From an uncultured bacterium (GTDB taxonomy: Bacteria > Patescibacteriota > Minisyncoccia > Phycocordibacterales > CAIZLB01), in the NCBI GenBank assembly GCA_903864515.1, contig CAIPFZ010000018.1:17290-81289 (forward strand): a stretch of 64,000 bases of DNA, given 5' to 3'. This document shows, one piece after another, positions 11,830-47,149 of this stretch. A model generated the notes under the pieces. The model had not been told where the DNA came from and made no database searches. It saw only the letters and a list, made by a program, of their open reading frames with translations. The stretch's first letter is position 1, and each line of letters starts with the position of its first letter. The translations under genes were made by a program, and so were the position numbers.

Positions 11830-12567
11830 CTATACACCCTTCTCTTCTAAATCTTTCTTAACTGTCTTTCTAAAATATACCTCTTGAGCAATTGCAAATA
11901 TGTTTGAAGTAATCCAGTACAGTGAGATAGCTGATGTTAAACTAAATGAGATAAGAAAAACTATTGCTGGCATTGTATATCTCATCTGAACATTCATACT
12001 CTTAGCAAATTCCTCTTGTTTTCCCATCTTACCTGTAGGTTTATATGCCGGAACAGAATATCTAATTTGTATAAATTGAGTTATACCAACAACCAGACTC
12101 AACCAGAAGTTCTTTTTTGTTATATCCAAAAAGCCTAAAAAGAAAGTGTTTACCGTTTGAGGGTTTGGAATAAAGCTATATAAAATATCAGCATTTATAT
12201 TAGGTAATCCAGATGTATAAAAGATACTAGCCAAAGATAAAATGATTGGTAGTTGAATTAACAACAAAACAATACCAGAAAAAGGGTTCAGTTTGTTTAC
12301 CTTATAAAATTCAAACATCTTTCTCGCTTGCTCCTCTCTATTGTTAGCATATTGTTCCTTTATTTTATTCAATTCAGGCTCAAGTGCCTTCATCTTTAAT
12401 TGAGTAACAACTGAACTCTTTGACAGGGGAATTAAAACAAACTTAACAATACAAGTAAAAACTATTACAGCCACTCCCAAATCAGCTCCTGGAGTGTGGT
12501 TTATTATATAAACCAAGCCATTATATAGGGGGTTGTAAAATGTTACACTAAAAAAATTTGATATCAT
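11830..12567 (-). CDS. yidC: YidC/Oxa1-family membrane protein insertase (short form)
   Basis: Characteristic YidC core with five TM helices and a conserved charged loop (KMKALEPELNKIKEQY). Sits in the canonical rpmH-rnpA-yidC order. Confidence 0.85.
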   Translation of the reverse strand: MISNFFSVTFYNPLYNGLVYIINHTPGADLGVAVIVFTCIVKFVLIPLSKSSVVTQLKMKALEPELNKIKEQYANNREEQARKMFEFYKVNKLNPFSGIVLLLIQLPIILSLASIFYTSGLPNINADILYSFIPNPQTVNTFFLGFLDITKKNFWLSLVVGITQFIQIRYSVPAYKPTGKMGKQEEFAKSMNVQMRYTMPAIVFLISFSLTSAISLYWITSNIFAIAQEVYFRKTVKKDLEEKGV

Positions 12568-12941
12568 TATCTTATTATATAATCTTTTAATAAAATTTGC
12601 TTCATATCATAAACAATATCTGAAAAGTCAGCTTTTATTGAACTTAACTTTGATAAAACCACAAAACAGGGTATTGAAACCTTTAAATCCTCTTTTTCAA
12701 GACTATTTATTGCCTCTAAAAATGCTTCTTTTAGCCTCCTTTTTGATCTATTTCTATCAACAGCCTTGATGAAGACCTTTTTCGATGAAATAAAAGACCC
12801 TCCAATTAACAAAGGGTTATTTTGACCTGTTTTTTCAGGTTTTTCTTCCATTGTTTTTAAAAGAAAAAAGCCTGAATTATAGGCTTTACCTTTTTTCATT
12901 ATAGAAGCAATTTGTAGGGAAGAGAGGCTTTTAATGGTCAT
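12567..12941 (-). CDS. rnpA: ribonuclease P protein component
   Basis: RNR-type motif KAVDRNRSKRRLKEAF. Lies between rpmH and yidC. Start is likely MTIKSL (12941) rather than the track start 12977. Confidence 0.75.
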   Translation of the reverse strand: MTIKSLSSLQIASIMKKGKAYNSGFFLLKTMEEKPEKTGQNNPLLIGGSFISSKKVFIKAVDRNRSKRRLKEAFLEAINSLEKEDLKVSIPCFVVLSKLSSIKADFSDIVYDMKQILLKDYIIR

Positions 12942-12985
12942 AAATGGCTTTATTCTAGGCGTTTTACACCAAATCAAGCAAATAA

Positions 12986-30329: not shown

Positions 30330-31283
30330 ATGAATATATCTAAAAAACTAGAAACAATACAAAAGACACTGGGTTTAACCCAAACCAAGCTTGCTGGGCA
30401 ACTTGGTGTTTCTTTCCCTACCCTTAACAGTTGGATTATTGGTAAAAGTATTCCTAGATTAAAAAAAGAAAAGATAATCAATGATTTGTTTCTAGAGGTT
30501 ACCGGCCAAAAGCAAATTCCAGAAGATGAATTAAATAAAAAAAGAAAAATTTTGCAGTATAAAACACTCGGGTATAAAAGCGTTTTGCGTGAAATTATAG
30601 ATAATCCCGACATTAGAGATCAGTTCATTCTAAAATTGACATATCACAGCAATGGTATTGAAGGTAGCACCTTAACTGAACCTGATACTGCTAATATACT
30701 GTTTAATAATATTGCTATATCTGAAAAAACATTAATGGAGCATATGGAAGCCAAAAATCATCAAACTGCTTTGTTGTATTTGTTTGATTATCTACTACAA
30801 AAGCAAAAGATAAATGAAGATCTGATACTTAAACTACACGGTATTTTAATGAATGGGATAATACCAAATGCTGGGGTGTATCGTAATCACGCTGTCAGAA
30901 TTGTTGGTGTAAACTTACCAACCTCAAACTATCTAAGTATTAAGAAAAATATTCAAGAATTGATAAGGTTTTCCGATGATTTTCTAAGTAAAAAAGATTT
31001 TAATATAATTTCTTTCTCGGCTATATTTCATAGCAAGTTTGAACAAATTCACCCCTTTTCTGATGGAAATGGAAGAATTGGACGTTTGCTTTTAAATGCC
31101 TTTTTACTTAAAGACAATATGGCGCCGGCTGTCATTAGACAAGAAAAGAAGCAGTTATATTATACATACTTATATAAATCTCAAATTAAAGAGGAATACA
31201 GTCAGTTTGAAGACTATCTTTGTGATGCAATCATGGCGGGCTTTACAATCTTAGAAAGAGAAGATGGGGAGTGGTATCTTTAA
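30330..31283 (+). CDS. Fic-family protein with N-terminal XRE-type HTH domain
   Basis: N-terminal HTH (LGLTQTKLAGQLGVSFPTLNSWIIG). Canonical Fic motif HPFSDGNGRIGR. Confidence 0.8.
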   Translation: MNISKKLETIQKTLGLTQTKLAGQLGVSFPTLNSWIIGKSIPRLKKEKIINDLFLEVTGQKQIPEDELNKKRKILQYKTLGYKSVLREIIDNPDIRDQFILKLTYHSNGIEGSTLTEPDTANILFNNIAISEKTLMEHMEAKNHQTALLYLFDYLLQKQKINEDLILKLHGILMNGIIPNAGVYRNHAVRIVGVNLPTSNYLSIKKNIQELIRFSDDFLSKKDFNIISFSAIFHSKFEQIHPFSDGNGRIGRLLLNAFLLKDNMAPAVIRQEKKQLYYTYLYKSQIKEEYSQFEDYLCDAIMAGFTILEREDGEWYL

Positions 31284-31345: not shown

Positions 31346-31420
31346 GTCCGCTCGGTAGGAATCGAACCTACGACCCTCTGCTTAAAAGGCAGGTGCTCTA
31401 CCGACTGAGCTACGAGCGGA
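31346..31420 (-). tRNA. tRNA-Lys (anticodon TTT)
   Basis: Reverse strand reads TCCGCTCGTAGCTCAGTCGGTAGAGCACCTGCCTTTTAAGCAGAGGGTCGTAGGTTCGATTCCTACCGAGCGGAC. Cloverleaf with anticodon loop CTTTTAA. CCA not encoded. Confidence 0.85.
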
Positions 31421-31511
31421 TATATTTGATGTAAATTAGGTACGAAATACTTATTCAGCTTTCTTGTACGTATTATCAAATAATGTTAAAACTATATCAA
31501 AAAAACAAGAA

Positions 31512-32117
31512 ATGTCTAATGCTAATAACGAAAAAACTAAAAAAGACCATAATTTAATGGGTACTTCAAATAAAAAAGCTATAAATAAGCTTAGTTTTAA
31601 CGCCGTTGTTGTTTTGCCTGACATAAGAAGTGCCCATAATGTCGGGTCTGTTTTTAGGACGGCCGATGCTGCTGGGGTAAAAAGAATATATATATCTGGT
31701 TATACTCCAACACCATTGAATAAATTTAATAAACCCCAACCCCAAATTGCTAAGACTGCCTTGGGGGCAGAAAAGACTATTGCGTGGGAATATTTTGAAA
31801 GTCACATTACTTTATTAAATAAATTAAAAAAAGAAGGCTTTAAAATTATTGCAGTAGAGCAGACAAATAATTCAATAAATTATAAGAGTTTAAGTCTGGA
31901 GGGTTTGTTTAATGATGTAAACAAAAAAACTATAGATAAAAAGACTGGAGCGGAGGGTTTGCCCATAGCTTTTGTTTTTGGAAATGAGGTTCTAGGGCTG
32001 CCTAAAAAGATTTTAGATAAGGTTGATGTTTGTATTGAGTTACCAATGAATGGAATGAAAGAATCATTAAATGTTTCAGTAACAGCTGGAATTGTCTTGT
32101 TTCAATATTTAGTTTGA
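31512..32117 (+). CDS. SpoU/TrmH-family RNA 2'-O-methyltransferase
   Basis: SPOUT motifs AVVVLPDIRSAHNVGSVFRTADAAGV, VFGNEVLGLP, and ELPMNGMKESLNVSVTAGIVLFQ. Start uncertain (31464, 31512 or 31557). Confidence 0.7.
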   Translation: MSNANNEKTKKDHNLMGTSNKKAINKLSFNAVVVLPDIRSAHNVGSVFRTADAAGVKRIYISGYTPTPLNKFNKPQPQIAKTALGAEKTIAWEYFESHITLLNKLKKEGFKIIAVEQTNNSINYKSLSLEGLFNDVNKKTIDKKTGAEGLPIAFVFGNEVLGLPKKILDKVDVCIELPMNGMKESLNVSVTAGIVLFQYLV

Positions 32118-33133
32118 TGATTCTCACAATAGTGAGTACTTCTGCCTCCAACTACAATTCTTTTGATTGTATATTTTAAGACTTCTTTTGTCTTGCCTGT
32201 TTCTGTCTTGCTTAACCTCTTGCATTCCGTTTTGCTGCACAACTCTCCCTTCTTTCTATAAACATTGTGCTGTTCTTGAAAAGATCCTTTTTCTCCATCT
32301 ATATTTCTATAATCAGACATTGAGTCTCCTCCAAAGTCTATTCCATTTGTTAAAACAGTTAAAATGGATTGAAAAAGTTTTTTAAGCGCATGTTGCGGAA
32401 TGTTTCTAACAATACTTTCTGGGTGAATATTTGAAAGCCAAAGTGCTTCATCGGAATAAATATTACCAATACCTGCAATTATTGTTTGATCCAATAGTAC
32501 TGTCTTAATTTTACCATTTGGTTTTTTATTAATTTGATCTTTAAATATTTCAAAATTAAATTCCTTGTTTAAAGGCTCTGGTCCAAGATGGGCTAAATCA
32601 GAGGAGTGAAATAATTTATCTGTTTTTATAACAGTAACTTTTGCAAACTTTCTAGTGTCAGATAAGACTAGTTTGCACCTCTCAGTGAATTCTGATTTTT
32701 TATGCAGTAAACTGAGGCTAAAAACAAGCCTTATGTGAGAATTGAATGGATCGTTCAAGGCTTGATTGTTAGTATTTGTTGGTTTCCATGGGTCATCTGA
32801 CTTAATGGATGTGGCTTTACTCCTTGTTTTTGAGGAAATGCTTGTATTTGTATATTCTCCAAACATTAAGTGACCAGTCATTTTCATGTGAATAAGAATA
32901 GTTTCCTTGTTGTCTAGATTTATTAAAATATTTTTTGCTCTACGTTCTGCATTTATAATTTTTGCTCCAATAATTCTGTTTTTGAATTCTGTGAAAAACT
33001 TCGGATCTTTAATATTCTCCTTCGATTTATAATATGGACTATTATAAATACTCCAGACATCAATTATCTTTGCGCCTTTTACTTTTTTATTTAAACCATT
33101 AACGGTTGTTTGTACTTCTGGTAATTCTGGCAT
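32102..33133 (-). CDS. mutM: formamidopyrimidine-DNA glycosylase (Fpg/Nei family)
   Basis: N-terminal MPELPEV, H2TH region, C-terminal zinc-finger cysteines (CSKTECK...HYCENHQ). Contains an insertion relative to typical Fpg. Convergently overlaps the trmH end by 16 nt. Confidence 0.75.
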   Translation of the reverse strand: MPELPEVQTTVNGLNKKVKGAKIIDVWSIYNSPYYKSKENIKDPKFFTEFKNRIIGAKIINAERRAKNILINLDNKETILIHMKMTGHLMFGEYTNTSISSKTRSKATSIKSDDPWKPTNTNNQALNDPFNSHIRLVFSLSLLHKKSEFTERCKLVLSDTRKFAKVTVIKTDKLFHSSDLAHLGPEPLNKEFNFEIFKDQINKKPNGKIKTVLLDQTIIAGIGNIYSDEALWLSNIHPESIVRNIPQHALKKLFQSILTVLTNGIDFGGDSMSDYRNIDGEKGSFQEQHNVYRKKGELCSKTECKRLSKTETGKTKEVLKYTIKRIVVGGRSTHYCENHQTKY

Positions 33134-33203
33134 TTTTGACGATTACTGTATCTTGAATAATAAAGAAATGTGGTGAGATGGTGGGGGGGGAGAAAAAAGG
33201 AGT

Positions 33204-33821
33204 TTAACTCAATACTTTAAGAGTTGCTTTAAGTATTGTACTTATGTCCTTCGTGTCTCTAATTTCCTTGGAAACATTCTCAAGCGCTTCTCTTGCTTCG
33301 CGCTGAGTATAACCTAATGCCTTAAGTGCTTCAAGTGCCTCCACTTCAATACCCCTATTTTGTTTGTTGTTTGATATTATTCCACCCTCAATTGAATCGT
33401 CATCCATATCACCCAATATCTTACCTTTTAATTCCATAACAATCTTTTCTGCGATTTTCTTACTTATCCCAGATACATTTGTTAAGTATGAAATATCTTG
33501 AGAGACAATAGCTTGTCTAAGATTTTGAGTATTAGCAAGTCCTAAAATATTCAAAGCAGATTTAGGCCCTATACCAGAAACACTAAGCAGGAGATTGAAA
33601 AAGTCTAATGAGTTTTTGTTTTTGAAGCCGTAGAGGTCTATTGCATCATCTTTGACAACGGTGTGAATCCAGATATCGACATGAGAAATACCTTCTGTTT
33701 CTGCAATAAAATCAGGGGTGGTGTAAACTTTATAACCCACACCGTTTTGATCGTTTCCTGTGTTTACGATCAAAAACTTCAAATCCCTATAAATAATGTC
33801 TCCTTTTAGGTATCCAATCAT
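33204..33821 (-). CDS. ruvA: Holliday junction DNA helicase RuvA
   Basis: OB-fold N-terminus (MIGYLKGDI), two HhH motifs (SVSGIGPKSALNIL, NVSGISKKIAEKIV), C-terminal RuvB-interaction domain. Confidence 0.85.
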   Translation of the reverse strand: MIGYLKGDIIYRDLKFLIVNTGNDQNGVGYKVYTTPDFIAETEGISHVDIWIHTVVKDDAIDLYGFKNKNSLDFFNLLLSVSGIGPKSALNILGLANTQNLRQAIVSQDISYLTNVSGISKKIAEKIVMELKGKILGDMDDDSIEGGIISNNKQNRGIEVEALEALKALGYTQREAREALENVSKEIRDTKDISTILKATLKVLS

Positions 33822-33923
33822 GTGCGCATTATAGCATATTTTATTATGGTGATTTGGTAAAAGTGATATATTTTATTGTGTAGTTGTCAAAAAACAACTT
33901 TTCTGCTATTGTTTGCAATACAT

Positions 33924-34184
33924 ATGCCAATAACCCAATCAGCAAAAAAAGCACTTAGAGGCTCAGAGAGAAAGAGAGTTGTTAATGTTCGTCGTAAGAA
34001 GAAGGTAGACATAGCTGTTAAGGCTGTTAAGACTCTTACTTCAACAGACAAAGCTACTGCTCAAACAGCTCTATCTAAGGCTTACAAGGAATTAGACAAG
34101 GCTGCAAAGAACGGTCTTATAAAGAAAGGCGCAGCAGACAGAAAGAAGTCAAGATTAAGTAAAATGGTTAAGAAGTTAAGTTAA
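33924..34184 (+). CDS. rpsT: 30S ribosomal protein S20
   Basis: MPITQSAKKALRGSERKRVVNVRRKKKVDIAVKAV is a classic S20. Start at 33924 (internal Met of track ORF 33876). Confidence 0.85.
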   Translation: MPITQSAKKALRGSERKRVVNVRRKKKVDIAVKAVKTLTSTDKATAQTALSKAYKELDKAAKNGLIKKGAADRKKSRLSKMVKKLS

Positions 34185-34205
34185 TTAAATAGATTAATTT
34201 ATCAA

Positions 34206-34236
34206 CAAAAAATACCTCATCTGAGGTATTTTTTGT
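34206..34236. terminator. bidirectional intrinsic terminator
   Basis: The sequence aaaaaatacctcatctgaggtattttttg is a 9-bp stem with A/T flanks, between rpsT (+) and the convergent membrane protein (-). Confidence 0.65.
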
Positions 34237-34244
34237 TGAGGGGA

Positions 34245-34946
34245 TTAAATAAGGGGGTCTTGCTTAAGATCCTTTGGATCTACATCATCAATATTCTTAT
34301 TATCTCCCAGTATTGTAGGGTGTTCTTTAACAATCGGCTCTGTTGTTAAGGGGACTGCGTTTCCATCCTTCTTTACCAATATGTGATGATGGGGGTTTGG
34401 TCCATTTTCTTCCTTCTGCTCCTCCTCCAATATTAGTTCCATAATAACGTCCTTAACTCTTTGAGGATTAGAAATCTGTTCAAAGAAGAATTTATTATCC
34501 TTTCCTGCAGTTTGTATCTCTATTACTCCATAATTGAAAAAAGTCGGTATTAAACCTTGAACTTTATAAGAAACGTCTTGTATTTTATCCAATTGTAATT
34601 CAGCAACTCTTCTGTTGAAAAAACCAGTCTGTAAACTGTCCACAACCCTCTCTGTTGTGACAATCCAGTTGTCTAGCGTATACATCGTAATTACATAAAA
34701 TAGCCAAAACCATAGGAATAGATAATAGGTAATCCAAAGAAAGGAGTAGATTGCTATTAAGTCATATTTAACAATTATAGAGCTAAAAGCAACTAGAAAA
34801 ACAAAGGGTAGGAATACAAAAAAGCCAATAAGTAGTATTTTTGCGGTAAGAGTAATCCAGTGTCTGTGTAAAACGAGAATAACATCTTCCTCCTCCTCTT
34901 TTCCCTCAAAAAACCAATTGTGTTTTTTTAATATTACTTTAGGCAT
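34245..34946 (-). CDS. membrane protein with bacterial PH (bPH_2/YdbT-like) domain
   Basis: Two N-terminal TM helices, then a domain ending ...VIEIQTAGKDNKFFFEQISNPQRVKDVI, typical of DUF304/bPH_2. Confidence 0.45.
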   Translation of the reverse strand: MPKVILKKHNWFFEGKEEEEDVILVLHRHWITLTAKILLIGFFVFLPFVFLVAFSSIIVKYDLIAIYSFLWITYYLFLWFWLFYVITMYTLDNWIVTTERVVDSLQTGFFNRRVAELQLDKIQDVSYKVQGLIPTFFNYGVIEIQTAGKDNKFFFEQISNPQRVKDVIMELILEEEQKEENGPNPHHHILVKKDGNAVPLTTEPIVKEHPTILGDNKNIDDVDPKDLKQDPLI

Positions 34947-34948
34947 GA

Positions 34949-35218
34949 TTATTGTGTTTTTTGTTTAAAATTATTTAAGATGACACTATTTTCCTTTATG
35001 AAAGTACTTTCACTTCCAAACATTTTTTTAAAGTCTATTTGAGTAAAGAGCATGAAGCTAAGCATACTGAGAATGATGGATCCGGCTAAAAATACAGCCA
35101 CAATTTTCTTTGGCCAAGATGTAATGCCATATTTAAGAAGGTGATACACTATAAAGAAAGCGCCCAACCAATACACAGCTAGGTATATTACTGGGATTGA
35201 AAGCATTATCTTGTTCAT
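34949..35218 (-). CDS. small membrane protein
   Basis: 89 aa with three hydrophobic segments. Immediately upstream of 34245..34946. Confidence 0.35.
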   Translation of the reverse strand: MNKIMLSIPVIYLAVYWLGAFFIVYHLLKYGITSWPKKIVAVFLAGSIILSMLSFMLFTQIDFKKMFGSESTFIKENSVILNNFKQKTQ

Positions 35219-35345
35219 GGAAGTATTTTATCACAGATAAAAATCTTTTGCCTTGAATGCCTATTGTTCTTGATTGGCTTATGTGCCAAATTCTTTAATG
35301 GGGTAGGCGTATGCTAATTGCAGTAATTAGACCTATCTTATAAAT

Positions 35346-35420
35346 TGGTGCTCCCGGTAGGAATCGAACCTACATTTTAACTTCCGCAAAGTCATGTCCT
35401 ATCCATTGAACGACGAGAGC
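35346..35420 (-). tRNA. tRNA-Arg with anticodon GCG (unusual)
   Basis: Reverse strand reads GCTCTCGTCGTTCAATGGATAGGACATGACTTTGCGGAAGTTAAAATGTAGGTTCGATTCCTACCGGGAGCACCA. Anticodon loop TTGCGGA gives GCG. D-arm and T-arm are near-identical to the tRNA-Arg(TCT) at 41012, supporting Arg identity. CCA encoded. Confidence 0.7.
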
Positions 35421-35447
35421 AATACCATAAAAAGTACCACAGATTTG

Positions 35448-35930
35448 CTAAAAACCCAAATTTTCTAGTATAAGTTGAGAAAGTGACTCCTCCATCTCCT
35501 TTTCAAGTAGATTATACAACAAAAAATCTCTAATCTCATGAGTCTCTATTCCATCAATTGGAATTATCAATAATGGGACAAGTGACTTTCTAGACTTAAT
35601 TAAAAGCTGAGACATTCTACCGTGTTCCTCATTATCTTGAACCCAAAATGACTCAAGAGTAGCGTAAGGGTAGAGTTTGTTACCAATTCTAACTCCCATT
35701 CTATTTAATTCAAATATAGTTAATTTAGGATGTCTAGACCCTACAATAGCAAGAGATATACCAATAACTATTAAAAGAATTCCAAATAGATAATTACCAA
35801 ATATAATAGAAAGAAAGGATGCTGTAACAATTAGTATTCCAAGAGACCAATACCAGTCTTTACTTTTCTCACGATGCTCATGCTCGTAAGTTTCCCAGGT
35901 TATTGATTTGACTTGTGATTCATCGTTCAT
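35448..35930 (-). CDS. hypothetical membrane protein
   Basis: Two TM helices near the N-terminus (LGILIVTASFLSIIFGNYLFGILLIVIGISLAIVG), then a soluble domain. Confidence 0.4.
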   Translation of the reverse strand: MNDESQVKSITWETYEHEHREKSKDWYWSLGILIVTASFLSIIFGNYLFGILLIVIGISLAIVGSRHPKLTIFELNRMGVRIGNKLYPYATLESFWVQDNEEHGRMSQLLIKSRKSLVPLLIIPIDGIETHEIRDFLLYNLLEKEMEESLSQLILENLGF

Positions 35931-35974
35931 AATTAAAATAATTATATCACTCGATTAATGATATTGCTATATCA

Positions 35975-36519
35975 TTAAAATTTATCTTGAAACGGAATAT
36001 CTATAAGCTTCTCGTACTTCCCACCAGAAATCTTTTTTTCATATACTCTTATAAAAGAAACTTTAAATTTAGGTAGTTTTAACAATTTGTCTTTCGCCCC
36101 TTCCTTTACTAATAATAGTTCTTGAGATGTCATCCCCCATGACGTTCCAGCTAGTGTGAGGTGAAAATGATAATTAGCACCCTCAAAATATTTTTTAGTT
36201 AATTCGTCACCAGGCTTAATTGTATTCATAAGTATTTTATGAAGGTCTGATAATTCCCTTGTGGGTGAAGGGGTTAGAAAGACAACGTTTTCTCCAAAAT
36301 TACCAACATCAACCATTGATATGTGAAAATTAGGATAACCCTGAACTGCTTTTTTAACAGAAGAAATCCAGCCCTTATCTTCAGATAATCCACCTTGAGC
36401 TTTAACTGTAATGTGAGGCTCTACCATTAGGGGACTTTATTGTTTGGAAAACTTTTTTGAAAGCTCACAATCTTTTCTTTAATATCATCTGGTAATGGAA
36501 TTCCAATAAAATACTGCAT
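35975..36519 (-). pseudogene. 2H phosphoesterase (LigT/ThpR-like) gene disrupted by a 1-nt frameshift
   Basis: The downstream part (35975..36427) carries both H-x-T/S-x motifs (HITVKAQG, HFHLTLAG). A 30-codon ORF at 36430..36519 encodes MQYFIGIPLPDDIKEKIVSFQKSFPNNKVP, the typical LigT N-terminus, in another frame. One extra C in the cccc run at about 36424-36431 would join them into one ~180-aa protein. Confidence 0.55.
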
Positions 36520-36715
36520 TTTAGTTTAATTAATTTGATGCTTTAATATTTAGATAAACAGGATAACCCTCACATATCAAGTCTTCAATGGGTACATATT
36601 AACATGTTTAAACTAAGTTGTCTGAGATGTGTGTTTTGCGATTATCTAGTTAATTTTAAGTATTCTTGTTAATATATTCACCAGAGACAGTAAACCATCA
36701 ACCTGAAAGGAAAAA

Positions 36716-37087
36716 ATGAAAACGTTTTTGTACAGACTGATATCAATTAGGAACGGAAACAAGGATGGGGTGTGGGTTTTGGGAGGAACCCTCTATTACC
36801 ATCATCAACTTCTCCTCGTGATAGAGGCTGATGATGCAGAACAAGCAGCAAAAGCTTTGGGTACTAAGATTGTTGGTTCGTTTGATCGTTCGCGTGCAAA
36901 TCTTCCAACGGTGTATTACACTGGTATTTCTCATGAAAACCAAGATCGTGCTTCCAATCACAAAGAAGGGTGTTTCTTTCTGTCACTTAAGGAATTGGAG
37001 CCGGGTGATGAATCTACGCATCCTGACTTAGTTGAGAAGACACACCTCAAGGTTACAGCACCAAGAGCAGTGCGGGTTGTCGCCTGA
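36716..37087 (+). other. GC-rich (~45%) segment open in several frames; unidentified structured RNA or foreign gene
   Basis: Three overlapping ORFs on both strands (36716-37087 +, 36743-36961 -, 36831-37031 +). G/C-ending codons are atypical for this genome. Followed by a strong hairpin and tRNA-Ser. I could not match it to tmRNA, RNase P RNA or SRP RNA by eye. Confidence 0.3.
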
Positions 37088-37115
37088 TTTACACAAACAA
37101 CCTGTATAAACAACA

Positions 37116-37142
37116 GCCCCGTCGCACTTCGTGCGACGGGGC
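37116..37142. terminator. strong GC-rich hairpin (12-bp stem, UUCG loop)
   Basis: The sequence gccccgtcgcacTTCGtgcgacggggc. On the minus strand it is followed by a U-rich tract, so it can terminate tRNA-Ser; it may also terminate the upstream GC-rich unit. Confidence 0.55.
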
Positions 37143-37164
37143 TAAGTCATGTTTATTGTATCGG

Positions 37165-37252
37165 CGGAGGAGGTGAGATTCGAACTCACGGTCCCCGTAA
37201 AGAGACTCTTGTTTTCAAGACAAGTGCATTAGACCACTCTGCCACTCCTCCG
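37165..37252 (-). tRNA. tRNA-Ser (anticodon TGA)
   Basis: Reverse strand reads GGAGGAGTGGCAGAGTGGTCTAATGCACTTGTCTTGAAAACAAGAGTCTCTTTACGGGGACCGTGAGTTCGAATCTCACCTCCTCCG. Long variable arm. Anticodon loop CTTGAAA. Confidence 0.85.
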
Positions 37253-37374
37253 TGTTTGTCATATTAGCAAAAATAAGGAAAAAAACAATAGACCACTTAA
37301 ACTATTAATTCTAAGTGATGTTTAATCAGTTTAATTAGCCATAAATCATTCTTTTTGCTAGACTAACTGTACTT

Positions 37375-38253
37375 ATGAATAAAGCTGTCTCTGAAATTAA
37401 AAAGAGAATAATAGGCCTAGATTTTGGCTCAAAAAGAATTGGAGTTGCTCTTTCTGATGAGCTTGGTTTGTTGGCTTTTCCTTTGTGTGTGGTGCCAGGT
37501 TTTGGACATGACACAGATAAAAGAGAGGAGAGAATGAGTCAAACAGAAAAGGAAGTATTATCGATATTAAAAGAGAAGGAGATTGATACTGTAATAATTG
37601 GACATTCCGTTGATCTGAAGGGTTTTGATAATACAATAATGACGGACGCTAGAATATTTGGTTCAAAACTTGAGAGCTACGGCTTTAAGATAGTTTATGA
37701 GCCAGAACTATTTTCAACTGTCCAAGCGACAAAAATTCAAGGAGAGAACAAAAACGCTGACGCATCTGCAGCTGCTATCATTTTACAAAGTTATTTAGAT
37801 AGAATAAAATTTAAAAATATGAATACACAATCACAAGATTTGGGAACAAGTTCCGATAATTTAAACAATACAGAATCGACAGAAGCTCCAAAGGGTGAAT
37901 CAAAGAGTGAAGTAAAAAGCACACCAGAATATATAACAATTGATGATTTTATTAAGGTAGAAATTAAGATTGGTGAAATTATGACCGCTGAGACAGTTGA
38001 AGGTTCTGATAAGTTATTAAAGCTCTCAGTGGACTTTGGTGAAGAAAAACCAAGGCAGGTTTTGTCTGGAATTGCTAAATATGTTGAAATAGAAGAGTTG
38101 ATAGGAAAAAAATTTCCCTTTGTCACAAATCTTGCACCTAGGAAGATGATGGGACAAGAAAGTCAGGCTATGATTTTGGCAGGAAGTCATGAGAATGATC
38201 TTGCTCTACTTAATCCAAGTAAGGATTTACCGAATGGAACGAAGTTAAAATAA
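37375..38253 (+). CDS. ruvX: RuvX/YqgF pre-16S rRNA nuclease fused to a C-terminal Trbp111/CsaA-type tRNA-binding domain
   Basis: N-terminal IIGLDFGSKRIGVALSDELG ... DTVIIGHSVDLKG ... ASAAAIILQSYLD gives the YqgF RNase H-like fold. The C-terminus DFIKVEIKIGEIMTAETVEGSDKLLKLSVDFGEEKPRQVLSGIAKYVEIEELIGKKFPFVTNLAPRKMMGQESQAMILA is a canonical OB-fold tRNA-binding (Myf) domain. Confidence 0.75.
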   Translation: MNKAVSEIKKRIIGLDFGSKRIGVALSDELGLLAFPLCVVPGFGHDTDKREERMSQTEKEVLSILKEKEIDTVIIGHSVDLKGFDNTIMTDARIFGSKLESYGFKIVYEPELFSTVQATKIQGENKNADASAAAIILQSYLDRIKFKNMNTQSQDLGTSSDNLNNTESTEAPKGESKSEVKSTPEYITIDDFIKVEIKIGEIMTAETVEGSDKLLKLSVDFGEEKPRQVLSGIAKYVEIEELIGKKFPFVTNLAPRKMMGQESQAMILAGSHENDLALLNPSKDLPNGTKLK

Positions 38254-38327
38254 AAGTAAATTAAAGTTATTTAATTTTACACAAATAATCATAACAAAAT
38301 CTTTTTGTTATGATAGAATAGTAGTAC

Positions 38328-39452
38328 ATGTCACATTTAGATTTTCTAAATAAATATTTTCCAACACCACATTATCTGGAGATGTCACACGCTGGTGTGG
38401 ATATTAGTTCATCGTCTGTTCACGTGTCTGAATTGATTAGAACATCTAAGGGGTTGAGACTGAAATATTGTGCTGAAGAAAATCTCGCTTCTCCAATTCT
38501 TCCAAATGAATCTTTAATTTCTAACAAAAATCTGATTGAAGTCATGAAGAATATTCAAAAGAAGTATAAGTTAAAGTTTGTTGAAGTCTCTATTCCGGAG
38601 GAAAAAGCGTATTTGTTTACAATAGAGGTGGTTGATGGAACAAAGGAAGAAATTAGAAATAGAATAGAGATGCACCTTGAAGAAAACGTTCCAATATCTA
38701 TAGATGACGCTGTGTTTGATTACCATAGAATAAAGAAAAATGAAAATACGGGTATGCAGTTTTTGGCCGTATCTGTTGTTCCTACGGTTGTTATAAATGA
38801 ATATATAGAACTATTTGAATCATGTGGAATGTTTCCAATATCCTTTTTGATTGAAAACCAGGCGCTATCAAGAGCTATTGTTAAGAGGGGAGACAGAGAA
38901 AATTATCTTATAATAAACGTTGGTCACAAGAGTACTGTACTCTCTATTGTAAATGATGAAACTGTGCAGTTTACATCTACAATAACCCTTGGATCTGAGG
39001 ATTTTACTAATGCAGTAATGCAGGCGACATCTTTTGATAAAGATCAATCTTCTGTCTTAAAGTATGAAAAAGGATTCTCAAGGGATAAAGAAAATGAAGT
39101 TATATCAAACGCTTTAATTGGTACAGCAAATATATTGGTCAGTGAAATTAGAAAGGTTCTTATGTACTGGAATGGTATGAATAGTTCCAAGATAATTGAA
39201 AACAGTATATCTGAATTATCTAGGCAAGTACCCCAATCTTCTGTTGGTGTAAAAAAAGTATTGATTGCAGGAAAGGAGGCTGGTATTTCTGGATTCAGAG
39301 ATTTCTTGGCAATTTCACTTAAAACGCCGGTTGAAATTGCAAATGTGTGGACAAACATACTGTCCTTTGAAGATAGTATTCCAGATATATCCATGAAGGA
39401 ATCATTAAGTTACGGCGTTTCCTTTGGGCTAGCTTTATTAAAAGATCAATAA
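38328..39452 (+). CDS. pilM: type IV pilus assembly protein PilM-like (actin-like ATPase fold)
   Basis: ~370 aa cytoplasmic protein, followed in operon order by single-TM PilN-like and PilO-like genes. Assignment by gene order, size and composition. Confidence 0.55.
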   Translation: MSHLDFLNKYFPTPHYLEMSHAGVDISSSSVHVSELIRTSKGLRLKYCAEENLASPILPNESLISNKNLIEVMKNIQKKYKLKFVEVSIPEEKAYLFTIEVVDGTKEEIRNRIEMHLEENVPISIDDAVFDYHRIKKNENTGMQFLAVSVVPTVVINEYIELFESCGMFPISFLIENQALSRAIVKRGDRENYLIINVGHKSTVLSIVNDETVQFTSTITLGSEDFTNAVMQATSFDKDQSSVLKYEKGFSRDKENEVISNALIGTANILVSEIRKVLMYWNGMNSSKIIENSISELSRQVPQSSVGVKKVLIAGKEAGISGFRDFLAISLKTPVEIANVWTNILSFEDSIPDISMKESLSYGVSFGLALLKDQ

Positions 39453-39453
39453 A

Positions 39454-40005
39454 ATGTTACATCTATTAACTGAATCACAAAAGAATAAGGTGACAAAGGA
39501 ATACAAGATGAGACTTGTTATTGTTGTATCTTGGATGATCATCTTTATATCCCTTACTGGTATGGCATTAACTCTGCCGATTTATTTAATATCAGTAAGT
39601 AAGATTAATCATATTAAAAACGATAATCAAAGTAAGGAAAACTCAACTAAGGCTCTTCGTGATCAGAATTTTCAAGATAAGATTAAGCAGGTTAATTCTA
39701 GCTTGGGTGCACTTAAGATGTTTGTAGGTGTACCGTCTCCCAGGAATACTTATCTAAAGATAGTCGACAGCTTGCCTGAAGGTGTATATATAGACAGGTA
39801 TACTTACGGATTAATAGACGATAGTTCCGCATCAATTAGTATAAGTGGCGTGGCACCAGATAGAGAGAGACTGCTTGAGCTTCAAAATAAATTAAAATCA
39901 AATAGTGAATTTAGTGGTATTAATATTCCAATTACCGGTTTTACCAAGAAAAAAGATTTAAGTTTCTCGTTAAATTTCAATTTAATTAGAGTTATTAAAA
40001 AATAA
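39454..40005 (+). CDS. pilN: PilN-like bitopic membrane protein
   Basis: Short cytoplasmic N-terminus, one TM (LVIVVSWMIIFISLTGMALTLPIYLI), periplasmic-type domain. Start codon overlaps the pilM stop. Confidence 0.5.
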   Translation: MLHLLTESQKNKVTKEYKMRLVIVVSWMIIFISLTGMALTLPIYLISVSKINHIKNDNQSKENSTKALRDQNFQDKIKQVNSSLGALKMFVGVPSPRNTYLKIVDSLPEGVYIDRYTYGLIDDSSASISISGVAPDRERLLELQNKLKSNSEFSGINIPITGFTKKKDLSFSLNFNLIRVIKK

Positions 40006-40007
40006 TC

Positions 40008-40553
40008 ATGTCCAAAAGAACTATTAGCACATTAATTATATCCGTAACCCTAGCAACCATCTCTATTGCAGGATATTTTTACACTGTAACTTATGTTGGA
40101 GGTATGGGTAGTAGTTTAAGTGATATGTATGCTAAATCAGTAGAATTAAAGAAGGAAGAAGAAAGTCTAAGTTCAATTCAGCGTGTAGCTCAGAATGCTG
40201 ACCAAAGAAACGCCGAGCTGTCTAAGTATATTGTTCCTTCTGGAAATGAGGGTTCTATACAGTTTGTTCAAACAATAGAGAATTTAGCTGAAAGTTTTGG
40301 ATTGACTTATAATACGAACTCAATTGAAATTGTATCCGATGAAAAATTAGCAAAGCTTGATAAGGAATATTTAAGTATTAAAGAGACATTAAATGGATCA
40401 AGTAAATCAATTGCTGGGTTTGTAGAAAAGATTGAGACATTACCCTTAAACACCAAGATTAGAAGTTATTCAGTGACAAAGACTGCGGGATCTAAGGGGA
40501 CTTCAACGGTCGAACAATTAGATATAGAAATATTGGTTATTAAAGAAAAATAA
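40008..40553 (+). CDS. pilO: PilO-like bitopic membrane protein
   Basis: One N-terminal TM, a coiled-coil segment, then an alpha/beta domain. Position after pilN. Confidence 0.45.
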   Translation: MSKRTISTLIISVTLATISIAGYFYTVTYVGGMGSSLSDMYAKSVELKKEEESLSSIQRVAQNADQRNAELSKYIVPSGNEGSIQFVQTIENLAESFGLTYNTNSIEIVSDEKLAKLDKEYLSIKETLNGSSKSIAGFVEKIETLPLNTKIRSYSVTKTAGSKGTSTVEQLDIEILVIKEK

Positions 40554-40554
40554 T

Positions 40555-40956
40555 ATGAAAATAGAAATGGGAAAACTCGGCAGTAGTTTAAAAAGAATGT
40601 ATATATTTGGTAGTCATCCCATCTTAGACTGGCAAAGGATTATTGTAGTGAGCGTTTTGCTTATAACTGCAATATTTGTCTGGAGCTATTTCTTTTATTT
40701 TTCCGTAAAATCTGATTTTGGAAATAGTCTAGTTAATGTATCTGAATATGTTCCTGTAAAAGATAAAGAAGCAGAAATCAAGGAGGTTGTTTATAAATAC
40801 AAAGTAAAGGAGTTCTTGTGGACAGGTGGAACAAGTACAGCTGTGGTGAGTGATGATCTGAATGTTGGTACTAGTAGTAATGTGAACAAGGGTGGCACCA
40901 CTACTACTGCTGGAGTTGTTTCTACTAGTACCGGTTCAAGTGCTAATGTGAGATAA
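40555..40956 (+). CDS. small membrane protein with S/T/G-rich tail (possibly PilP-like)
   Basis: One TM (IIVVSVLLITAIFVWSYFFYF). C-terminal low-complexity GTSTAVVSDDLNVGTSSNVNKGGTTTTAGVVSTSTGSSANV. Confidence 0.35.
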   Translation: MKIEMGKLGSSLKRMYIFGSHPILDWQRIIVVSVLLITAIFVWSYFFYFSVKSDFGNSLVNVSEYVPVKDKEAEIKEVVYKYKVKEFLWTGGTSTAVVSDDLNVGTSSNVNKGGTTTTAGVVSTSTGSSANVR

Positions 40957-41011
40957 ACCGGGGTGATCAAGAGGGCTGGTAAAATTTTAAAAATATGCTA
41001 TTGTACTTGCA

Positions 41012-41083
41012 TGCTCTTGTAGTTCAATGGATAGAACTGCGGACTTCTAAGCCGTTAATGTAGGTTCGATTCCTACCGAGAGC
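41012..41083 (+). tRNA. tRNA-Arg (anticodon TCT)
   Basis: GCTCTTGTAGTTCAATGGATAGAACTGCGGACTTCTAAGCCGTTAATGTAGGTTCGATTCCTACCGAGAGCA. Anticodon loop CTTCTAA. Followed by a terminator hairpin at about 41092-41119. Confidence 0.8.
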
Positions 41084-41190
41084 ACAACAGATAAAGCGCC
41101 CAGAAGGGCGTTTTTGTTTTAAGGCGACGTTGCAAATATGGTTTATGGATAACAATAAAAGCATGGAGTTTATCTCCATGCTTTTATTTT

Positions 41191-41266
41191 TGGTGGGCGA
41201 TAAGGGACTCGAACCCCTGACCTTCTCAGTGTAAATGAGTTGCTCTACCAACTGAGCTAATCGCCC
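41191..41266 (-). tRNA. tRNA-Val (anticodon TAC)
   Basis: Reverse strand reads GGGCGATTAGCTCAGTTGGTAGAGCAACTCATTTACACTGAGAAGGTCAGGGGTTCGAGTCCCTTATCGCCCACCA. CCA encoded. Terminator hairpin downstream at about 41157-41185. Confidence 0.85.
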
Positions 41267-41318
41267 TCACTTGGTTCTCATAATATATACTATTATTGAA
41301 ATAATATCAATATCAAGT

Positions 41319-42152
41319 ATGATAACGGTAATGTTGTCTATAATATATCAAGATAAGGACGTTTTAATCATAAATAAGCCTGCAGGCATTATGGTTCACG
41401 GTGATGGTAAATCACAAGAAAAAACCTTGTGTGACTTTGTGGAGGAGGAATTTCCTGAGACTAAAGATGTTGGTGAGCCTATGATGATTGGTAGGGGGCC
41501 TAATAAAGAACCTACAATTCTAAGAAGACCGGGTATTGTTCATAGATTGGATAAAGAAACTTCTGGTGTTATGGTGGTGGCTAAAAATCAGCCAGCCTTT
41601 GAAATACTCAAAAAACAATTTCAAGATCATGTAATTAAGAAAACATACAATACTTTTGTGTGGGGTGCTGTTAAGGAAGATGAGGGGGTTATTGATAGAC
41701 ACATAGGAAGAAGTAAGGGGGACTTTAGAAAATGGAGCGCACAACGTTTTTCACGTGGTGAGTTGAGACCTGCTGTGACTGAATATAAAGTATTAAAGAG
41801 ATTTGACGGTGATCCTGTAATGAAACGTGGGGCGATAATGGTTGGTAAAGGTAATTCAAAAATACCACTAGTGTTTACTCTTGTTGAGGTTCATCCACTA
41901 ACTGGAAGGACACATCAGATCAGGGTTCATTTTAAAGCAATTAATCATCCTGTTGTTGGGGATAGTTTGTATGCTGAGAATCATCCGTATGCTCTAGGTT
42001 TTGCTCGCCTAGCGCTTCACGCAAGAAAATTAAAATTAATTTTACCAGTAGATGCTCTTGTGGATAATGAAGGAGATATAAGTGGAAAGATGAGTGAATT
42101 TGAGGCAGAGCTTCCGGTGGATTTCAAAAAAGCCACAGATGCTTTATTATAA
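41319..42152 (+). CDS. RluA-family pseudouridine synthase
   Basis: Catalytic motif HRLDKETSGVMVVAK. Entry motif IINKPAGIMVHG. Start likely 41319 or 41331. Confidence 0.8.
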   Translation: MITVMLSIIYQDKDVLIINKPAGIMVHGDGKSQEKTLCDFVEEEFPETKDVGEPMMIGRGPNKEPTILRRPGIVHRLDKETSGVMVVAKNQPAFEILKKQFQDHVIKKTYNTFVWGAVKEDEGVIDRHIGRSKGDFRKWSAQRFSRGELRPAVTEYKVLKRFDGDPVMKRGAIMVGKGNSKIPLVFTLVEVHPLTGRTHQIRVHFKAINHPVVGDSLYAENHPYALGFARLALHARKLKLILPVDALVDNEGDISGKMSEFEAELPVDFKKATDALL

Positions 42153-43300
42153 TGATAATGAAGAATAGAACTAAAGGACTCCGAACTTGGATTGAAATAG
42201 ATAAGAAATCAGTTCTGAATAACTTAAAATCATTTCGAGGTCTAGTTGGAGATGGTGTGAAAATAATGTCTGTTGTTAAATCTAATGCTTATGGACATGG
42301 TCTTTGGGATTTTTCAAATACAATTATGAAGGATAAGAACCTTGATTGGTTTGGTGTTGATTCTGTCGTTGAAGGCCTTACCCTGAGAAAAGAGGGAGTT
42401 AAGAAACCAATTCTTGTTCTCGGATATGTCCTTCCAGAGATGTTGAAAATTGCACAAGAGAACGATTTGAGTATTGCTGTATCCTCAATGGAAACTATCA
42501 AGGAAATTTTAAGGACTAAATTTAGAGGTAAGTTAAAAATTCATTTGAAATTGGATACTGGTATGCATAGGCATGGTTTTAATCGATTCCAAAAAACTGA
42601 AGTTTTGTCGGCTTTAAGGGGTGTCCTCTCTAAGGTAGAGATTGAAGGTATTTTTACTCATTTTGCATCTGCAAAAGATCCAAGTGATAGGAATTATACT
42701 AATGGGCAGATTAGGGAGTTCACAGAGTGGGTAAATTTTTTATCAAAAGAATTAAATATACATCCAATAAGACATGCGTCAGCAACAGGAGGAAGTCTAA
42801 TTTATGAAAATGCTCGTTTCGATATGATTAGAGTTGGAATTGGAATGTATGGACTGTGGCCATCCGAAGAATCAAAGAAGTATAAAAGTAGAACGATAAA
42901 GATAAGCCCCGTTTTATCTTGGAAAACAATTGTCGCAGAAATTAAAATGATTAAAAAGGGGGAGGGGGTTGGTTATGATCTATCTGAAAGGGTAAATAAG
43001 GATACAAAAATAGCTATTCTTCCAATTGGCTATTGGCACGGATTCCCCAGGGGCCTTTCCCGTGTTGGCTGTGTCTATATAGGGGGAGTTGCCTGTAAGG
43101 TCTTGGGTAATGTGTGTATGGATATAATAATGGTAGATGTTTCAATGGTGCCGGGAATAAGGGTTGGTGACGAGGTTGAAATAATTGGAAGGAGTGATAA
43201 AAGCAAAAATAGTTTGTTAAATATGGCTAAATTGGCAAATATGTCCATTTACGAGCTTGTTACTAGAATCAACCCCCTAATTAAACGGATAGTTATTTAG
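42152..43300 (+). CDS. alr: alanine racemase
   Basis: PLP-lysine motif VVKSNAYGHG near the N-terminus. Length and C-terminal beta domain fit Alr. Confidence 0.85.
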   Translation: MIMKNRTKGLRTWIEIDKKSVLNNLKSFRGLVGDGVKIMSVVKSNAYGHGLWDFSNTIMKDKNLDWFGVDSVVEGLTLRKEGVKKPILVLGYVLPEMLKIAQENDLSIAVSSMETIKEILRTKFRGKLKIHLKLDTGMHRHGFNRFQKTEVLSALRGVLSKVEIEGIFTHFASAKDPSDRNYTNGQIREFTEWVNFLSKELNIHPIRHASATGGSLIYENARFDMIRVGIGMYGLWPSEESKKYKSRTIKISPVLSWKTIVAEIKMIKKGEGVGYDLSERVNKDTKIAILPIGYWHGFPRGLSRVGCVYIGGVACKVLGNVCMDIIMVDVSMVPGIRVGDEVEIIGRSDKSKNSLLNMAKLANMSIYELVTRINPLIKRIVI

Positions 43301-43366
43301 TTTAACCAACAGGAAGACAGGTCCCTGGATTTGCAAAAACAGAGTATCTCTGCTATATTGCTCCCT

Positions 43367-43873
43367 ATGACAGCAGCTATAAAAACAGTTAAAAAGGATA
43401 TTAAAGTGGCTAAAACAGATGCTACTAGAAAGGATTTTGATATGCGCGTAGGTGATACGGTTAAGGTGTATCAAAAAATTCAAGAAAAAGGTAAGACTCG
43501 TCTTCAGGTTTTTGAAGGGCTTGTTCTTGCTAGAAAGCACGGAAGTGAAGCTGGCGGTACTTTTACCGTTAGAAAGGTTTCTGGAGGCTATGGGGTAGAA
43601 AGAATCTTCCCATTGTATTCACCTAATATTGATAAGATAGAAGTTACAAAGCGTGCTAAGGTTCGTCGTGCTAAACTTTACTATATTAGAGACAAGGCGG
43701 CTAAAGAAATTAGTAAGAGAATGAAGATGGAAATGACAAAGCGTGATTCATCTCATTTAACTAAAGCAGAGGCTGCAAGATTAGAAGCGGAGGAGGCAGC
43801 TGCAGCAGCACTAGCTGAGCCGGAGGTAGAGGTGGTAGAGGCAACAACAGAAGACACAACAGCTACAGCATAA
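43367..43873 (+). CDS. rplS: 50S ribosomal protein L19 with acidic/Ala-rich C-terminal extension
   Basis: [59 protein letters not shown] is the L19 core. Terminator hairpin at about 43906-43942. Confidence 0.85.
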
Positions 43874-43965
43874 TTTAAATAAGACAGGCGCCACAGTGGT
43901 GTATAAAAACAAGACCAGTAAGATGGTCTTGTTTTGTTGTTTGCTTTTATGCATAATATACCAAT

Positions 43966-44052
43966 GCGCGAGTGTTGAAACTGGTAGACAAGCATCCTTG
44001 AGGTGGATGTGCCCGTAAGGGCGTGGAGGTTCAAGTCCTCTCTCGCGCACCA
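43966..44052 (+). tRNA. tRNA-Leu (anticodon GAG)
   Basis: GCGCGAGTGTTGAAACTGGTAGACAAGCATCCTTGAGGTGGATGTGCCCGTAAGGGCGTGGAGGTTCAAGTCCTCTCTCGCGCACCA. Long variable arm. CCA encoded. Confidence 0.85.
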
Positions 44053-44339
44053 AAATTAAATTGACCAAAGAGCTCTGAATGACTACCGATGGATATTACT
44101 GTTAGTATCATACTGTTATTATCCCTTTCATAGATTAATAGTAAATCTGGGCGAATATGGCACTCATAAAAACCTGAGTATTCACCATTTAGTTTGTGGT
44201 TTTTAAATCTCGGAGCTAAGACTTTTCCAGAAGTTAAAATGTTAATAACATAATTGATTTCAAATTCTGTATATCTTCCTGACAATAAGACTTTCTCTAA
44301 TTGTTTTTTAAAATTGTTGGTATAATATATCCTATACAT
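44031..44339 (-). CDS. yafQ: type II toxin, YafQ/RelE family mRNA interferase
   Basis: GEYSGFYECHIRPDLLLIYERDNNSMILTVISIGSHSELFG matches the YafQ core (G.W.G.R..H...DW.LIY......L.L.RTGTH..LF). The last 7 codons overlap the 3' end of tRNA-Leu on the opposite strand. Confidence 0.75.
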   Translation of the reverse strand: MYRIYYTNNFKKQLEKVLLSGRYTEFEINYVINILTSGKVLAPRFKNHKLNGEYSGFYECHIRPDLLLIYERDNNSMILTVISIGSHSELFGQFNFGARERT

Positions 44340-44393
44340 AGTGCACAGAATATCATTTACACACCAAAGAAAACCCGAAGAAAATATAAATTT

Positions 44394-44690: not shown

Positions 44691-44784
44691 TTGTCATTAC
44701 ATTGTCAACTCACCGGTCTGCCCCCTTTTTTTTATTAAGTAAGTGTTTATGGCCTTTAGTTTTTAATTTTGTTAATATTGTGGT

Positions 44785-45750: not shown

Positions 45751-45771
45751 AGATTGTTGTCTATTATTCTT

Positions 45772-47094: not shown

Positions 47095-47149
47095 GTTGGT
47101 ATGATATCATTATATCGATTTATTAAAAGCTTTAAATTAAACACAAAAC

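Follow-up and report, generated by a model that had tools for sequence, protein, structure and literature searches.

Locus and domain architecture

The window analysed here is a 64-kb stretch of a contig from an uncultured bacterium of the Patescibacteriota, and our subject is one gene in it, which encodes a RuvX/YqgF-type nuclease and a Trbp111-type tRNA-binding OB domain as a single protein. The gene order at the locus is tRNA-Ser (minus strand), fusion gene, pilM, pilN and a pilO-like gene. The fusion gene and its parts are:

37375..38253, plus strand: fusion gene, complete, 292 residues and a stop codon (ORF list and sequence; identical public protein P0001)
37405..37800, plus strand: RuvX/YqgF RNase H-like nuclease domain, residues 11-142 (PF03652, TIGR00250, AlphaFold2, Foldseek)
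37831..37914, plus strand: low-complexity disordered linker, residues 153-180 (AlphaFold2 confidence, gappy alignment columns)
37930..38247, plus strand: Trbp111/MetRS-C-type OB domain, residues 186-291 (phmmer, PF01588, TIGR00399, Foldseek)

The open reading frame (ORF) starts with ATG and runs through its 292 codons with no internal stop; it encodes a genuine two-domain protein that is kept by selection. No second RuvX-like or Trbp-like ORF is found within the 64-kb window.

The initial annotation had assigned a YqgF RNase H-like N-terminus and a C-terminal tRNA-binding domain, and both assignments are borne out. Pfam places RuvX (PF03652) at residues 11-142 (E 2.8e-22, 80 bits; cutoff 29.2) and tRNA_bind (PF01588) at residues 197-290 (E 3.1e-27, 94.9 bits; cutoff 27), and the peptide quoted in that annotation is present in the sequence. 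Among NCBIfam models, RNAse_H_YqgF (TIGR00250) matches the N-terminal part with 53.3 bits (cutoff 43.25) and metG_C_term (TIGR00399) the C-terminal part with 130.8 bits (cutoff 116.65). In sequence searches of the PDB the N-terminus matches YrrK of B. subtilis (1VHX) and YqgF of E. coli (1NU0), and the C-terminus matches Aquifex Trbp111 (1PYB/8VTZ, E 2.6e-27); in phmmer, the C-terminus aligns to residues 6-110 of the 111-residue Trbp111 chain (1pyb/8vtz, E 2.5e-28). An AlphaFold2 model made from 78 homologues, with a mean predicted local distance difference test score (pLDDT) of 86.6, has two folded domains with pLDDT >90 (residues 11-150 in the nuclease) and a disordered segment between them, where pLDDT falls below 50 at residues 154-170 and 173-180. 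Compared with the PDB by Foldseek, the nuclease half resembles YqgF of D. radiodurans (7w89, with a TM-score on target of 0.81), with matches to 7w89, 1vhx, 1nu0 and 7ess at E 1e-8, so it has the RNase H-like fold; the OB half resembles Trbp111 (8vtz, TM-score on target 0.90) and also MetRS-C and CsaA.

The same annotation had typed the OB domain as Trbp111/CsaA and as Myf/EMAP, of which the Trbp111/MetRS-C part stands and the CsaA and monomeric EMAPII parts do not. Both CsaA models stay far below their cutoffs (NF007496, 66.1 bits against 171; TIGR02222, 47.7 against 119.65), as do those for YtpR (19.3 against 100), pheT_bact (20.5 against 402.65) and the YgjH-like subtype. The protein ends where the OB domain ends and has no EMAPII pseudo-dimer extension. 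By these scores and boundaries the domain is of the dimeric Trbp111/MetRS-C class, and is neither CsaA nor monomeric EMAPII.

Distribution of the fusion

Public collections contain an identical protein (P0001), encoded on a contig of 96,905 bp. Both Pfam domains occur together on one polypeptide in more than 100 clusters at 90% identity, down to ~36% identity, and the assemblies behind these clusters are from NCBI, JGI, ENA and Logan. At the level of DNA, six fused loci (L001-L003, L081, L082 and L084) are single ORFs. The worry that two separate genes had been joined in the window by a sequencing or assembly frameshift can draw on the many relatives that do carry two genes, but the identical protein and the fused clusters stem from a variety of samples and assemblers, and the fused forms own a dedicated linker of 10-45 residues that split forms lack. 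We therefore discard an artefact, whose probability is negligible. The breadth of these homologues indicates that the fusion is real and ancient.

Where organism names are attached to the fusions they read Patescibacteria group, Candidatus Paceibacterota or Candidatus Taylorbacteria. Going by these names, attached to homologues, and by their lineage, the carriers belong to the Parcubacteria part of the Candidate Phyla Radiation (CPR). A profile built from 78 fusions and searched against 1.84 billion representatives of 50%-identity clusters gave only ~17 full-length matches, in keeping with the earlier remark that the combination is uncommon; the many lower matches are proteins of ~130 residues with the RuvX half only or of ~110-165 residues with the OB half only. 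Because of this result we regard the architecture as globally rare yet well established in one bacterial radiation. Scanning genome contigs with the single protein returned four relevant loci (L001-L003 and L028), the rest being MetRS genes of unrelated bacteria.

Most of the linker columns contain more than 75% gaps in an alignment of 100 fusions, so the linker varies in length. The longest linkers belong to the subclade of the window protein, which also has an 11-residue insertion in the nuclease domain (residues 46-56). The linker ahead of the OB domain can be aligned to the C-terminus of full-length MetRS models of NCBIfam.

A coupled ruvX-trbp gene pair

Loci that have both domains were classified by scanning metagenome contigs with a profile and then running domain hidden Markov models on stop-to-stop ORFs. 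Among the loci fetched, 33 are split adjacent pairs and 7 are fused. A close relative (L083) has separate ruvX (156 residues) and trbp (164 residues) genes, its C-terminal half being 66% identical to that of the fusion, with a 73-nucleotide AT-rich spacer between them that contains many stop codons. Other split pairs have a 96-nucleotide gap (L085/L086), an 8-nucleotide overlap (L088), an overlap (L028) or a 17-nucleotide overlap (L089). In split loci, trbp has its own ATG a few nucleotides from the ruvX stop or overlapping it, several times as an ATGA overlap, and the two genes stand in all three relative reading frames (15, 10 and 8 loci), with ruvX stops that are mostly TAA. Spacers of 2-10 nucleotides and ATGA overlaps persist across lineages that are only ~40% identical.

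The separate ATGs, the three frames and the ATGA overlaps argue for translational coupling and against either sequencing error or stop-codon reassignment. The same features lead us to reject the split pairs as fusions written in genetic code 25 (UGA = Gly) or made by read-through, since three frames occur and each OB gene has its own ATG; the ruvX stops of the ten in-frame cases are TAA in five, TGA in three and TAG in two. On this evidence the fusion is derived from a ruvX-trbp pair that is conserved, and often translationally coupled, in Parcubacteria-type CPR bacteria. A look at the phylogenetic distribution had been proposed in the initial annotation; the fusion is indeed rare, but as the fused state of a conserved CPR pair it is no isolated oddity.

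A neighbour-joining tree of the RuvX domain, meant for counting fusion events, is star-like and poorly resolved. The only clearly monophyletic group in it is the subclade of the window protein (P0001, P0005, P0006, P0009, P0011 and P0016), whose nearest neighbours are split forms (L088, L083 and L085); fused and split states are otherwise interleaved.

Two split loci have features of their own. In L089 an A7 run (GATAAAAAAAGT; 410-445) lies just upstream of the 17-nucleotide ruvX/trbp overlap, where the frames differ by +1, and transcriptional or translational slippage there could in principle yield a fused product from a split locus. The free Trbp of L085 (5001-5510) has a low-complexity insertion of ~55 residues in its OB domain, between 'DFGE' and 'PRQVLSG'.

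The nuclease active site

The fusion shares with YqgF/RuvX proteins (1NU0/1OVQ, 7W89, 1VHX, 7ESS) the RNase H-like fold, the GxDxG motif, the D/E/D carboxylates, the DASAAxxILQ helix and a domain size of ~135 residues. Unlike the classical members, among which M. tuberculosis RuvX (7ESS) is a dimeric junction resolvase, it bears a C-terminal OB domain and has EPE in place of xDE(R). The active site residues are:

37420..37422, plus strand: D16, first catalytic carboxylate, in the GLDFG motif (aligns with E. coli YqgF D9)
37699..37707, plus strand: E109-P110-E111 motif, with E111 the second catalytic carboxylate (alignment, conservation)
37759..37761, plus strand: D129, third catalytic carboxylate, in the DASAAAIILQ helix (invariant column)

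All three carboxylates are invariant in 78 fusions. D16 is kept in 32 of the 33 split RuvX genes, and E111 and D129 are invariant in split genes too. In the alignment with the E. coli and B. subtilis proteins, E111 falls on the E of their DER. In D. radiodurans YqgF (DrYqgF) the equivalents are D22, E106 and D122: RNase activity is impaired by the D22A substitution and lost in the E106A and D122A mutants (PMC9601230). This conservation shows an active site that is intact and under purifying selection, and nuclease activity is predicted for the RuvX/YqgF half. The EPE motif occurs in 27 of 31 fused proteins and in 51 standalone CPR RuvX sequences as well; by these counts it is not specific to the fusion but common to standalone CPR RuvX. 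One fused protein of 228 residues (P0133) is without the strand that bears the EPE motif, and with it the E111 equivalent, which makes it a degenerate nuclease or else an error of gene calling.

The 3'-CA pocket and dimer interface

In a 2024 co-crystal structure with tRNA, Trbp111 binds only the single-stranded 3'-terminal CA dinucleotide and not the elbow or body of the tRNA; it rejects 3' extensions, internal CA and a 3' phosphate (PMC11286949). Mutagenesis identified K33, R75, F78, S82 and M85 as important, with K33A impairing binding and R75A nearly abolishing tRNA binding (PMC11286949). The fusion had initially been proposed to be targeted to structured RNA, an idea that does not fit this mode of recognition, in which the Trbp111 fold reads the single-stranded 3'-terminal CA only and not the shape of the tRNA (PMC11286949). 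The corresponding residues in the fusion are:

38011..38013, plus strand: K213, equivalent to Trbp111 K33, which contacts C75 of tRNA (residue alignment)
38140..38172, plus strand: R256...S263...M266 in the motif APRKMMGQESQAM, equivalent to Trbp111 R75, S82 and M85, forming the pocket for the terminal A76

The OB domain is 46-48% identical to A. aeolicus Trbp111 (1PYB, 8VTZ/8VU0) over 105 residues, and shares its fold, its dimer flanks and four of the five pocket residues (K213, R256, S263 and M266 for K33, R75, S82 and M85). It differs by Met for F78 (M259 of the fusion), a residue also found at this position in some MetRS C-domains, and by Ala for K73, whose contact is through the backbone alone. 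Across 100 fusions K213 is conserved in 98%, R256 in 94%, and S263 and M266 in 100%. Among the 33 split Trbp genes the K213 position is K or R in all, and the R256, S263 and M266 residues are present in the 29 pairs that could be aligned. These frequencies show a CA pocket that is intact and under purifying selection, and binding of 3'-CA is predicted for the OB half. Since dimerisation would not need the pocket, its 94-100% conservation argues that dimerisation alone is insufficient as the role of the domain.

Because the OB domain spans Trbp111 residues 6-110, the flanks that form the Trbp111/MetRS dimer interface are retained. In Trbp111 that interface has been called 'extraordinarily robust', and it drives dimerisation of MetRS (PMC11286949). 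By analogy, the fusion protein is probably dimerised through its OB domain.

Genomic surroundings

Several features of the window bear on how the fusion is to be read:

37163..37251, minus strand: tRNA-Ser(UGA), directly upstream of the fusion and divergent (ARAGORN, Rfam)
37144-37114, minus strand: strong terminator-like hairpin after tRNA-Ser, 14 bp with 10 GC pairs (terminator scan)
38328..40553, plus strand: pilM, pilN and a pilO-like gene directly downstream, syntenic partners (Pfam PilM_2, PilN)
19345-19818, minus strand: ruvC (Pfam RuvC, E 6e-36)
19845-20924, minus strand: ruvB (Pfam RuvB_N, E 6e-72)
33204-33821, minus strand: ruvA (Pfam RuvA domains)
12567..12977, minus strand: rnpA, RNase P protein, beside yidC and dnaA (Pfam Ribonuclease_P, E 1.7e-11)

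Of 30 related loci that have enough sequence, 27 have PilM no more than 1.5 kb downstream, and in 8 of these 30 a VTT/DedA gene stands right after trbp, between it and the pil genes. A few kb upstream there is often a ruvA gene on the opposite strand (1-5 kb away in several related loci), and the close relative L083 also has a tRNA upstream of ruvX-trbp. RuvX is itself found fused to the downstream VTT/DedA membrane protein in three proteins (P0179, P0181 and P0207); the RuvX-VTT/DedA observation was also recorded for L028 (2842-3438) and L084 (10781-11392). Fusion with a downstream neighbour seems to recur in the CPR clade that carries ruvX-trbp. The tRNA_bind domain turns up in two other unusual proteins, joined to Pterin_4a (PCD/DCoH) in P0163 and placed behind a linker and a 160-residue N-terminal region without a Pfam match in P0153.

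With ruvA, ruvB and ruvC all in the window, we reject the fusion as a stand-in for a missing junction resolvase, and with rnpA present we reject it as a simple replacement for RNase P. RNase P RNA was not detected within the 64 kb, where it need not lie. No MetRS gene is found in the window or in 40 related ruvX-trbp loci.

Discussion

Both halves of the fusion are, by their profile scores and folds, full members of known families and make up no new kind of system. What is undescribed is the RuvX-Trbp architecture and the conserved ruvX-trbp operon behind it; the individual proteins can already be found in databases, annotated generically as 'Holliday junction resolvase RuvX', 'methionine--tRNA ligase subunit beta' or 'putative transcription antitermination factor YqgF'. 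The OB domain is here attached to a nuclease or encoded beside one, whereas Trbp111 stands free and MetRS-C of bacteria and archaea (TIGR00399; 1MKH, 5H34) is part of a synthetase. The described partners of the Trbp/EMAPII OB fold are MetRS, PheRS and TyrRS and the scaffolds Arc1p, AIMP1 and tRip (PMC11286949). A nuclease partner goes unmentioned in that 2024 structural paper, in which 'nuclease' has 0 occurrences (PMC11286949), and we found no paper in the searchable literature that treats YqgF/RuvX together with a tRNA-binding domain. A survey of ribosome biogenesis in CPR bacteria scored yqgF as present or absent only (PMC12641178).

We propose, at a probability of roughly 0.45, that the fusion is a CCA-end-guided ribonuclease in the processing or quality control of tRNA or rRNA-tRNA precursors. 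The OB domain would homodimerise like Trbp111 and MetRS-C and capture, with micromolar affinity, the free CCA-3' ends of tRNAs or tRNA-like RNAs, so that the tethered nuclease would be enriched locally around the acceptor end. The 5' end of a tRNA adjoins its 3' CCA tail, so a tether of about 30-45 residues would concentrate the nuclease at the acceptor end, where it might then cleave or trim RNA near the captured 3' end. Candidate substrates would be 5' extensions, precursor junctions of tRNA or rRNA-tRNA transcripts, and damaged tRNAs. In the split lineages, which make up most of the relatives, the same RuvX-Trbp partnership would be reached by co-expression and co-translation of the two proteins. 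Similar logic operates in MetRS, PheRS beta, TyrRS, Arc1p and AIMP1, where a tRNA-end-binding OB domain of low affinity raises the substrate concentration; appended to aminoacyl-tRNA synthetases, it increases local tRNA concentration and lowers the Km (PMC11286949).

The biochemistry of the nuclease family is compatible with an RNA substrate. E. coli YqgF is the nuclease for the 5' leader of pre-16S rRNA, and DrYqgF is a Mn-dependent 5'-to-3' exonuclease and endonuclease that prefers rRNA and poly(A) and has no Holliday junction-resolving activity (PMC9601230). The RuvA, RuvB and RuvC genes of the window also mean that a DNA junction resolvase is already there besides RuvX. The coupling of ruvX to trbp points to RNA as the target of the nuclease, without proving it, and targeting of the nuclease to tRNA is plausible.

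Several observations weigh against the proposal. The predicted structure has no fixed interface between the domains (predicted template modelling score 0.57, with a disordered linker). The Trbp111 residue F78, which stacks on C75, is replaced by Met in the fusion, and Trbp111 binds 3' tails of DNA and RNA alike (PMC11286949). With the RNase P protein present, generic 5' maturation of tRNA is already covered. Finally, the block ruvX-trbp-(vtt)-pilMNO is syntenic as a whole and RuvX is also fused to VTT/DedA, so adjacency and fusion may reflect frozen gene order and not shared function.

This last point is the core of a serious and credible rival, which we consider possible but doubtful: in a streamlined genome of very stable gene order, two genes of a shared operon would have fused neutrally, or for convenience, by loss of a stop codon, with Trbp remaining in function a free 'MetRS beta/Trbp111' cofactor that works in trans on aminoacylation or the handling of tRNA, RuvX an ordinary pre-16S nuclease, and no new function gained. 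It would account for the RuvX-VTT/DedA fusions in the equivalent neighbourhood, where VTT follows trbp in 8 of 30 loci, for synteny of the unrelated pilMNO genes that is just as conserved, for the other odd Trbp fusions (P0163 and P0153) and for the interleaving of fused and split states in the RuvX tree. A C-terminal part that exceeds the metG_C_term cutoff, and a linker that aligns with the C-terminus of MetRS, would also suit a free MetRS-type cofactor. Less easily explained is that the pair stays adjacent and tightly coupled, through ATGA overlaps and 2-10-nucleotide spacers, in lineages only ~40% identical, and that both active sites have stayed intact in independent fused lineages; this is beyond what is expected of unrelated neighbours, though it is no proof.

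The OB domain might instead serve mainly for dimerisation, possibly also as a clamp on DNA 3' ends, so that a monomeric YqgF would become a dimeric nuclease for branched or incoming DNA. The very robust Trbp111 dimer interface, both flanks of which are kept in the window domain, and the binding of DNA tails like RNA tails by Trbp111 would suit such a role, and Trbp111 has already served as a fusion partner in protein engineering (PDB 7d8s, MITF-Trbp111). Both M. tuberculosis RuvX, which needs dimerisation, and H. pylori DprB resolve junctions in vitro (PMC9601230). A part in DNA uptake or recombination would fit the gene context, in which PilM follows in 27 of 30 loci and ruvA is 1-5 kb away in several. 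DprB is a YqgF homologue tied to natural transformation; it is without an OB domain, and its likeness to the fusion is one of context (pilMNO and ruvA nearby), a link from synteny alone. This view leaves the conservation of the CA pocket unexplained, and in 33 loci Trbp is a separate polypeptide that would not dimerise RuvX covalently. The window encodes a full RuvABC set, DrYqgF does not resolve junctions, and no linkage to dprA or comEC was seen. We consider a DNA-directed dimer improbable.

The proposed CCA-end-guided ribonuclease can be generalised, more tentatively and with less than even odds, to a large branch of the CPR: RuvX and its Trbp111-type CCA reader, whether fused or encoded in one operon, would form a dedicated two-part ribonuclease, whose substrates are chosen by their CCA-3' end. 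If true, this would be an unrecognised route of processing or quality control of tRNA or tRNA-like RNA, and would supply 'Rosetta-stone' evidence for RNA, and not Holliday junctions, as the native substrate of YqgF. Almost all bacteria have YqgF/RuvX, which is essential in several of them, and its job is contested, with roles claimed as a Holliday junction resolvase, a nuclease for the 5' end of pre-16S rRNA, an antitermination factor and a general RNase. A conserved operon and a repeated fusion with a CA-end reader are an independent genomic pointer to CCA-ended RNA as a substrate class, and open a testable route to the contested substrate of a nuclease family that is often essential. The finding would also add a nuclease to the known partners of the Trbp/EMAPII OB fold, so far synthetases and scaffolds. 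About half of the usual ribosome-biogenesis factors are missing from CPR bacteria (PMC12641178), and the ruvX-trbp pair adds to the picture of RNA maturation in them. If, on the other hand, the fusion is neutral, it would be a caution on inferring function from fusions where gene order is frozen.

Other features of the window

The window is chromosomal and origin-proximal, with rnpA-yidC, dnaA-dnaN, polA, argS, a PBP1-type gene and pilus genes. Its origin-type block (11830-16107) has yidC and rnpA on the minus strand followed by dnaA and dnaN on the plus strand; cumulative GC skew is ~0.07-0.15 near this block (to ~24 kb) and rises to 1.44 by 64 kb. After the pilM-pilN-pilO-like genes come a pseudouridine synthase gene at ~1 kb and an alanine racemase gene at ~2 kb.

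Seven tRNA genes lie within 18 kb (31346-49359). The 3' CCA is encoded in four of them (Arg-GCG, Val, Leu and His) and not in Lys, Ser and Arg-UCU, so the organism needs a CCA-adding enzyme and both kinds of precursor are present.

Two genes upstream of the fusion is a 150-residue protein of the 2H/LigT-type 2'-5' RNA ligase family (35975-36427, minus strand), and between it and tRNA-Ser is a 123-residue ORF with no Pfam match (36716-37087, plus strand). Farther upstream is a Fic/DOC protein with an N-terminal helix-turn-helix (30330-31283, plus strand). A type IV secretion- or conjugation-like cluster at 4697-7687 contains PrgI-like, TraC-like and VirB4/TraG-type P-loop ATPase genes, and beside it are large ORFs (730-3480 and 8335-11760) with no Pfam match.

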